Notes under the pieces: model-generated
Seen by the model: the letters and a program-made list of their open reading frames with translations, nothing else
Database searches by the model: none
Told to the model about the DNA's origin: nothing
Part shown: piece by piece, positions 4,710 to 5,201 of the stretch
Position numbering within the stretch: position 1 is the first letter of the stretch
Layout of the letters: each line of letters begins with the position of its first letter
Translations under genes and position numbers: made by a program
Source: a phage
Reading direction: 5' to 3' (one strand)
Sequence record: OZ503099.1
DNA: 48,179 bases

Positions 4710-5201
4710 ATGCTTACGCAAAAAGAACTTAAGTCGTTACTATCATACAACGCTGATAGCGGTGTTTTTAAATGGCTTGTTAACAAATCAATTTCTGTGA
4801 AAAAAGGAGATATAGCTGGAAGGAAAAATAAAAGCAACCACATCACAATAATGATTAATGGAGTTAGATATCAAGCAAGTCATTTAGCGTGGCTATATGT
4901 CAAAGGCGAGATGCCATCGAAGGCAATAGATCACATCAATGGTATTAGGAGCGACAATAGAATTGTCAATCTAAGAGAGGCCACGCTATCTCAAAATGCA
5001 ATGAATAGAATAAAGGCTGCAAACAACACATCAGGATACAAAGGCGTTAGCTTTCATAAGCAAAGTGGAAAATGGCAGGCAAGTATAAAGATAGATGGAA
5101 AGCAGAAATATTTGGGCTTGTTTTCGTCTCCAAGGCAAGCCCATAATGCATATGTAAACGCAGCCAAAGTCATTTTCGGTGAGTTTAGCAGGTTTTGTTA
5201 A
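4710..5201 (+). CDS. HNH homing endonuclease with AP2-type DNA-binding domain
   Basis: HNH motif [23 protein letters not shown] and AP2-like [25 protein letters not shown] upstream of ATG 4710; AT-rich codons; opposite strand inside tail module. Confidence 0.8.

Follow-up and report, generated by a model that had tools for sequence, protein, structure and literature searches.

Three putative free-standing HNH-AP2 homing endonuclease genes in slots beside essential genes of a Skatevirus-like phage

The sequence record OZ503099.1 is a stretch of phage DNA of 48,179 nucleotides, here called the window, which carries three genes (HNH1, HNH2 and HNH3) that each encode an HNH nuclease domain followed by an AP2 DNA-binding domain. 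A first-pass annotation had described three such genes, and all three are present, with the coordinates and strands given in Table 1. We conclude that they are very probably free-standing I-HmuI-like HNH(HNN)-AP2 homing endonuclease genes, carried in self-contained cassettes that occupy slots beside essential genes. We assign them to this class because their domains are intact, their composition is foreign, their cassettes fill the slots in which they lie, the sites are polymorphic between relatives, and the cassettes are more conserved than the DNA that flanks them. Each cassette consists of its own leader or promoter-like element, the nuclease gene and rebuilt junctions.

Relatives were collected by megablast of three 4-5 kb segments of the window, which returned 158-183 phage records. 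The closest of these, at about 90% identity, are the Salmonella and Escherichia siphophages Skate, PJN025, SeSz-2, KFS-SE2 and Vi II-E1 and the BASEL phages Bas77-81, and the best-matching records are classified in Skatevirus or neighbouring genera. The Skatevirus-like cluster has been described in the BASEL extension paper (10.1101/2024.09.12.612763). As no record among the megablast matches is identical to the window, the phage is a new member of this cluster.

Domains, fold and composition of the three genes

All three proteins exceed the cut-off of 24.8 bits for the Pfam family HNH_3 (PF13392), with 51.6, 65.1 and 40.1 bits for HNH1, HNH2 and HNH3, respectively, and all three match PHROG 99 'HNH endonuclease' with E-values of 1e-60 to 1e-73. 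A match to AP2 (PF00847) follows at 32.0, 28.6 and 32.9 bits (E-values of 1e-6 to 1e-8), slightly short of the gathering cut-off of 33.3. The domain order is the same in each protein, an I-HmuI-type HNH_3 nuclease and then AP2. A family alignment and profile were built from 66 sequences, comprising the three window proteins and 63 database homologues. Seven residues (D74, H75, N83, N87, R89, N96 and N99 in HNH1 numbering) are invariant throughout this set. The alignment also answers the question of whether the HNH catalytic residues are mutated or truncated, as the D-H...N...N pattern is intact in all three window proteins.

The family profile matches I-HmuI (1u3e; E-value 2.3e-7) across the DH...N...NLR...N block, as well as the plant AP2/ERF structures WRI1 (E-value 7e-11), TEM1, ERF096 and AtERF1. 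A single-sequence phmmer search of HNH1 against the PDB recovered matches for the AP2 part only, and I-HmuI was reached with the 66-sequence profile. An AlphaFold2 model of HNH1 has a mean predicted local distance difference test (pLDDT) score of 95.9, and in Foldseek its first-ranked match is 1u3e_M (E-value 2.2e-4, probability 1.00). The global template modelling score (TM-score) between the two is 0.44, which probably reflects their differing domain arrangement and C-terminal domain. Foldseek also places the model on the AP2 domain of TEM1 with a root-mean-square deviation of 1.1-1.2 Å over 47-51 columns (probability 1.00). The predicted architecture is thus an I-HmuI-like N-terminal sheet and HNH(HNN) nuclease in which AP2 replaces the C-terminal helix-turn-helix.

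The three genes had been called closely related and paralogous. They do belong to the same family; however, the proteins share only 47-50% amino acid identity pairwise, the DNA similarity among the genes is limited to about 150 nt of the HNH core, and for each gene some other phage holds a closer relative at the corresponding site. The three genes are independently acquired members of one family and not duplicates made within this genome. Further HNH-AP2 copies were sought by tblastn of each protein against the window, which returned only the three loci.

The composition of the three genes is foreign to the rest of the genome. Their GC content is 0.376, 0.414 and 0.382, against a mean of 0.470 (standard deviation 0.034) for the other genes, and codons rare in E. 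coli make up 14.7, 16.9 and 10.2% of HNH1, HNH2 and HNH3, compared with 5.2% for the other genes, whose maximum is 11%. The codon adaptation of HNH1 and HNH2 lies below that of every reference gene. The description of all three as rich in rare codons (10-17% against 5%) therefore holds, and they are AT-rich as well. A 136-aa gene (phrog_29997) at 38989-39399 (+) has a GC content as low as that of the cassettes (0.375) and may be another acquired gene.

Searches of the window for other nucleases and for introns gave little. Skate gp09, another endonuclease, finds nothing in the window by tblastn, and matches of Skate gp34 and gp68 are confined to the three HNH loci. Pfam searches of 10 open reading frames (ORFs) that lack homology to Skate identify a nuclease only in the conserved VRR-NUC gene at 43049-43489. 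No Rfam family is found in the whole window at the gathering threshold, a permissive search of 4450-5300 gives only a chance miRNA match, and the window contains no tRNAs. The neighbouring ORFs are intact at all three sites. An intron location of the HNH genes is excluded by this gene layout together with the Rfam searches.

Table 1. Coordinates of the three cassettes, their genes and leaders, and the adjoining phage genes in the window.
Feature	Position	Strand	Description
L-position minor tail gene	4061..4531	-	156 aa; DUF1833 borderline; phrog_396 minor tail protein
Orphaned old 3' end of M-like gene	4532..4548	-	LPEYQ then stop; adjoins L-like start codon
HNH1 cassette	4549..5210		662-bp insert by comparison with Bas81, where the site is empty
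HNH1 leader, non-coding	4554..4703	+	150 nt; promoter-like TTGAAA-N17-TACACT (4554-4582), hairpin 4640-4688, T-run, then Shine-Dalgarno (SD) sequence
HNH1 gene	4710..5201	+	163-aa HNH_3 + AP2 protein, antisense to tail operon
M-position tail gene	5198..5674	-	158 aa; phrog_384; stop overlaps HNH1 stop by 4 nt, convergent
Large terminase (TerL)	31387..32811	-	Terminase_3 + Terminase_3C; 5' ~400 bp within a tract near-identical to contig L049
HNH2 gene	32801..33319	-	172-aa HNH_3 + AP2 protein, co-oriented with packaging genes; last 11 nt overlap TerL start
HNH2 leader	33320..33422	-	103 nt; promoter-like TTGAGC-N17-TATAAT (33439-33411) and hairpins
147-aa gene at small-terminase position	33423..33866	-	phrog_9747, unknown function; no Pfam match
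Primase	39431..40384	-	Divergent from cassette; Pfam-confirmed; probable start at MKYDW codon at 40384
Site-3 cassette	40385..41127		Fills the entire divergent primase/helicase intergenic region; empty site in KE08 is 74-77 bp
Promoter-like TTGACA-N17-TAACAT	40451..40479	+	Ahead of Zn-ribbon ORF; 10/12 matches
Zn-ribbon ORF	40492..40620	+	42 aa, CxxC...CCSxxC, strong SD, first cistron of site-3 cassette
HNH3 gene	40538..41128	+	196-aa HNH_3 + AP2 protein; internal SD GGGGGAG 7 nt before ATG
Helicase	41128..43062	+	Directly downstream of HNH3; Pfam-confirmed

Three slots and their alleles in related phages

A comparison with HNH-free relatives, as the first-pass annotation had suggested, gives clean boundaries at all three sites, with Bas81 as the reference for site 1 and KE08 for the other two. 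Among phages with about 90% identity to the window the slots are empty or hold other alleles, and divergent same-site alleles are found in Lewi, CHRF_10034, Skate (gp01 and gp68), SeSz-2 and, as a pseudogene, Bas81.

At site 1 the minus-strand gene order is tape measure, 158-aa gene, HNH1 (antisense), 156-aa gene, NlpC/P60 gene and J-like gene. HNH1 had been placed between gpM-like and gpL-like tail genes on the opposite strand; the location and strand are correct, but the M and L names are positional, and the 158-aa protein has no Pfam match. The true start of the L-like gene is at 4531, as against a long-ORF start at 4846. Window positions 3900-4548 and 5211-5889 align to adjacent Bas81 sequence, in which the two tail genes abut. 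On either side of the insert lies one copy of an imperfect 9-bp repeat, CTCCGGCAG (4540-4548) and TTCTGGCAG (5211-5219). The insertion point lies 2-3 codons ahead of the stop of the M-like gene, which now ends LPEHSN and a stop on cassette codons. HNH1 has an SD sequence, GGAGG, 6 nt upstream of its start, and its protein is identical to Skate gp79 and to the PJN025 HNH protein. Across 4485-5263 there are 8 mismatches to Skate and PJN025 in about 780 bp, while both sides are 8-16% divergent. This near-identity of the cassette within diverging flanks indicates a recent lateral spread of the HNH1 cassette, with about 50-65 bp of co-converted flank. The whole cassette is present in 10 of the 104 records that match any part of it, and the surrounding tail region is matched by 158 records. 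Where the window has the 158-aa M-position gene, Bas77 has a 457-aa ORF, M-like at its N-terminus with about 300 extra residues (L003 2037-3410), which shows no similarity to the HNH genes.

At site 2, HNH2 and its leader fill the stretch between the stop of the 147-aa gene and the TerL start. In KE08 the corresponding space between the TerS-like gene and TerL is a 139-bp stretch with a 45-aa hydrophobic ORF and no HNH gene. TerL is confirmed as one neighbour, but the 'small terminase' of the first-pass annotation is a positional label for a gene without a Pfam match. The site-2 alleles of Lewi, CHRF_10034 and Skate (gp01) are 47-60% identical to HNH2. The Skate allele, at about 59% amino acid identity (L051), shares with HNH2 its first 29 residues, with one substitution, and likewise the closing EFCNHG motif. 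The best GenBank phage match to the whole HNH2 cassette is 72.7% identical in nucleotides, but many phages with other alleles match the 5' 200 bp of the cassette at 90-92% identity. A contig in IMG/VR (L049) encodes a protein 100% identical to HNH2. Compared with this contig the window is 98-100% identical over about 32400-33437 and 73-96% identical further into TerL, and on the TerS side homology is lost within about 70 bp. The shared tract is therefore asymmetric, extending at least 400 bp into the 5' end of TerL. Relative to Skate, TerL is a mosaic of 69%, 97% and 73% identity in consecutive 500-bp windows, a pattern that could come from repeated gene conversion beside the HNH2 slot.

At site 3, HNH3 lies directly upstream of the helicase gene, as had been described, and its stop overlaps the helicase ATG (TAATG). 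The protein P0001 is 97% identical to HNH3, and the cassette is 91.5% identical in nucleotides in Roufvirus pYD38-A and pIS4-A. Along this Roufvirus comparison identity is 86-96% in the cassette versus 61-78% in the flanking primase and helicase genes, and against the IMG/VR contig L017 the start of the helicase gene is the exact point where it falls from about 91% to 70%. Other phages hold something else at this position. INT55 has an unrelated small gene, and SeSz-2, Skate, Vi II-E1, ZCKP8 and others have different nucleases, Skate gp68 being another nuclease type. The Bas81 site-3 copy of an HNH-AP2 gene is split into unannotated ORFs of 97 and 66 aa (L009 1425-2000; the locus tag Bas81_0082 is missing) and appears to be decaying.

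A direct repeat, CATGAAACGC, occurs twice in the primase/helicase intergenic region (40431-40470) and flanks the promoter-like -35 element. Skate-type genomes have at the same place a different 20-nt repeat, ATGAAACAAT[C/T]AATCGTTAC, also in two copies. The intergenic repeat may be an operator or origin element.

An overlapping Zn-ribbon mini-ORF and portable leaders

The first 83 nt of HNH3 lie within the Zn-ribbon ORF at the head of the site-3 cassette, and HNH3 is read in frame +1 with respect to that ORF. The products of the Zn-ribbon ORF are 42-50 aa long in the window and at the related loci (L007 and L009-L045), with the consensus MAIT.KKC..CG..F.GT..A..CCS..CR. The overlap with a nuclease in frame +1 recurs at 39 of 39 related loci and with at least nine very different nuclease alleles, which include HNH-AP2 and Zn-finger-rich types. 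Because the mini-ORF is absent from cassette-free genomes, it is part of the mobile module. The Zn-ribbon and HNH module is also present at a second site, between the VRR-NUC and exonuclease VIII genes, in some relatives (L025-L028); this slot is empty in the window (43490-43697). The mini-protein has no Pfam family and shows a weak match (E-value 6e-4) to the Zn-ribbon segment of phrog_1271 'HNH endonuclease'. It may be a putative regulator or cofactor.

Variable sites in the overlap fall mostly at third codon positions of the mini-ORF (6/2/14 and 5/7/17 for positions 1/2/3). The mini-ORF is therefore the frame under protein-level selection in the overlap, and the first ~25 residues annotated for HNH3 are unconstrained. 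At the same time, all 29 unique sequences keep the +1 frame open, where synonymous resampling would leave it open in a fraction of 0.48, and 28 of the 29 contain in it an ATG or GTG preceded by an SD sequence (expected fraction 0.66), counts that are weakened by common descent, as the sequences represent nearer 6-8 effective lineages than 29.

There are two ways to read this arrangement. We favour a genuine overlapping gene pair that would travel as one module, on the grounds that the +1 frame is open and has its own start, that no slippery motif is conserved and that no in-frame fusion is found among the best database homologues. The other reading, which we regard as distinctly unlikely, is that the Zn-ribbon ORF and HNH3 are one gene expressed by +1 recoding, through ribosomal frameshifting or transcriptional slippage at a K/R-rich purine tract. 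The product would then be a Zn-ribbon-HNH-AP2 protein, and the annotated N-terminus of HNH3 would be an artefact. Several features fit such recoding. The nuclease is in frame +1 at every one of the 39 loci and conservation always switches frame at the purine/K-rich tract; the 25 N-terminal residues of HNH3 lack constraint; an invariant Arg before the tract is always encoded by a rare codon (AGG, AGA or CGA); and the phrog_1271 match places a similar Zn-ribbon segment inside an HNH family. However, a fixed +1 relation is also expected for overlapping genes inherited together, and the open +1 frame with its SD-preceded ATG or GTG well upstream of the tract exceeds what synonymous resampling gives. 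The tract itself contains no conserved slippery motif, heptamer or homopolymer; it varies between alleles, and its A7 run is specific to the window. With a hypothetical fusion as query, the 120 best database homologues include no in-frame Zn-ribbon-HNH fusion, and every one of these that was inspected begins at the internal ATG. A search of the literature on recoding in homing endonuclease genes found nothing relevant. A -1 frameshift site was also considered, A AAA AAG at 40596-40602 in the Zn-ribbon frame, and rejected; the -1 frame reaches a stop within 5 codons, and the other alleles lack the A7 run, so the heptamer is probably fortuitous.

The HNH1 leader is similarly portable. About 90 phage records contain it at 91-97% identity (locus L047 1501-1649), and there it heads a different HNH-AP2 gene that has the same 163-aa length and 41% amino acid identity to HNH1. 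That gene occupies a slot antisense between an Ig-like gene and an HK97-gp10-like gene, as in 64795_sal3. The same slot is empty in the window, near 11627, and the window holds no second copy of the HNH1 leader. Predicted long-range mRNA pairing over the HNH1 start codon (z = -3.1) was not adopted; by eye, the start region of 64795_sal3 behind the same leader differs and does not obviously pair.

Each of the three sites thus has a conserved 5' part joined to strongly divergent nuclease bodies. This suggests that homing endonuclease genes evolve as modules, with a regulatory 5' part and exchangeable specificity and nuclease parts, a view that would inform how such selfish genes are expressed without harming the phage. 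A more far-reaching proposal is that the site-3 element is an undescribed two-part mobile module, in which a leader and Zn-ribbon mini-gene have interchangeable nucleases attached in frame +1, and which in its strongest form would be a recoding fusion or a dedicated translational or DNA-binding controller. We think this unlikely. If it were true, selection would act on the conserved 5' module as its actual unit, with the nuclease bodies as exchangeable cargo, and the argument would extend to the portable 150-nt leader of HNH1. In the literature we found no prior description of the overlapping Zn-ribbon mini-gene or of the portable leaders.

Homing, rival explanations and known systems

The reading of the three genes as free-standing homing endonuclease insertions is supported by intact domains and residues, by slot polymorphism and by cassettes better conserved than their flanks. 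Such conservation of cassette over flank, with co-converted flanks of short to medium length, is the mark of lateral transfer with co-conversion. By analogy with the homing endonuclease genes of T4, SPO1 and ICP1, a cassette would spread in co-infected cells. The AP2 domain, together with the beta-sheet domain at the N-terminus, would place the HNH site on a cassette-less allele at or near the slot, and the enzyme would nick or cut that allele. Recombinational repair from the cassette-bearing genome would then copy in the cassette together with neighbouring markers. The cassette-bearing genome would itself be immune, as the insertion has changed the junction sequence.

Four points weigh against this reading. 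The AP2 scores fall slightly below the Pfam gathering threshold. Ordinary homologous recombination without a nuclease could in principle also give the observed conservation of the cassettes. A genome-wide identity profile against Skate is mosaic everywhere and does not single out the cassette sites. The first-pass suggestion that the genes may mark recombination hot spots finds support in the allele turnover at each site and the sharp identity steps at the cassette edges, but the mosaicism relative to Skate extends throughout. Lastly, simple double-strand-break repair would not leave the imperfect 9-bp repeat or the orphaned gene end seen at site 1; these two features point to an older illegitimate or microhomology event at the origin of the site-1 cassette.

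We also weighed whether the genes could be decaying, inactive remnants of past invasions that have become fixed and are now vertically inherited. Degeneration after fixation is common among homing endonuclease genes (PMC2248197), the Bas81 site-3 allele is split into two ORFs, and the public relatives of HNH3 are 91% and not 99% identical. However, all three ORFs are full length and retain every catalytic and near-invariant family residue, and the fold model of HNH1 is of high confidence. Furthermore, the HNH1 and HNH2 cassettes have copies with 99% identity in genomes whose surrounding sequence is 8-27% divergent, which requires recent transfer. Taken together, these observations make the remnant explanation highly unlikely.

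We give almost no credence to domestication, with HNH2 as a packaging HNH protein (HK97 gp74-like) and HNH3 as a primase-helicase accessory for replication or recombination: the positions beside TerL and the helicase gene, with translational overlaps of 11 nt and TAATG, would suit it, but viable relatives lack the genes (KE08 at sites 2 and 3), same-site alleles are only 37-60% identical or of another nuclease type, and the family is I-HmuI-like HNH_3 with AP2, not packaging HNH, beside a TerL of the Terminase_3 type. Some cos phages are reportedly dependent on an HNH protein adjoining the terminase, a finding ascribed to Kala and colleagues in 2014. Because natural relatives do without HNH2 and HNH3, a packaging role for the former and a replication role for the latter were rejected.

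With the genes taken as homing endonuclease genes, the cassettes appear dispensable and mobile, and they may mark natural insertion slots and recombination boundaries beside tail, terminase and helicase genes. This is of use for annotation and for comparative and engineering work on Skatevirus-like phages for therapy and biocontrol.

The archetype of HNH_3 is I-HmuI of Bacillus phage SPO1 (PDB 1U3E), which shares with the window proteins the D-H...N...N block and the N-terminal beta-sheet module, although its sequence identity to HNH1 is only about 18%. I-HmuI, which nicks one strand, lies within a group I intron and has a helix-turn-helix at its C-terminus, whereas the window genes are free-standing and end in AP2.

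Closer in kind are the free-standing HNN-AP2 endonucleases of the Xanthomonas phages Xp10, OP1 and Xop411, for which turnover between relatives has been described (PMC2248197). These have the same two domains and the same boxes (AHRxxW, WP, DH, DNR, NLR and xN), and they likewise occur as several dispersed copies in a small siphophage genome, with gain, loss and decay between relatives. They belong to another host group and phage lineage, and neither a Zn-ribbon overlap nor a shared 150-nt leader is described there. The HNH-AP2 class was defined by Magnani et al. 2004, as cited in PMC10448857.

The nearest genomes already contain annotated members. Homologues are labelled 'HNH homing endonuclease' in Skatevirus, Macdonaldcampvirus, Saltrevirus and Roufvirus, and Skate itself carries gp79, gp01 and gp68 at the same three insertion sites. 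The HNH1 counterpart, gp79, is 100% identical, and the HNH2 and HNH3 alleles differ from gp01 and gp68. Homing endonuclease genes of the Vibrio phage ICP1 lie at boundaries of genetic exchange ('HEG islands') and are interchangeable at a locus (PMC10448857). As in ICP1, the window genes sit beside tail, terminase and replication genes, with identity steps at their edges. The ICP1 'IPA-HNH' domains are too divergent for the HNH_3 profile, whereas the window proteins are canonical HNH_3 members, and for ICP1 homing or exclusion has been demonstrated experimentally, whereas for the window cassettes homing is predicted. Set against these systems the finding is an ordinary one, as the class, its preferred neighbourhoods and its turnover have been published and the annotation of Skate already names HNH1 a homing endonuclease; the Zn-ribbon mini-gene, with its overlap, and the portable leaders add a little to a known class.

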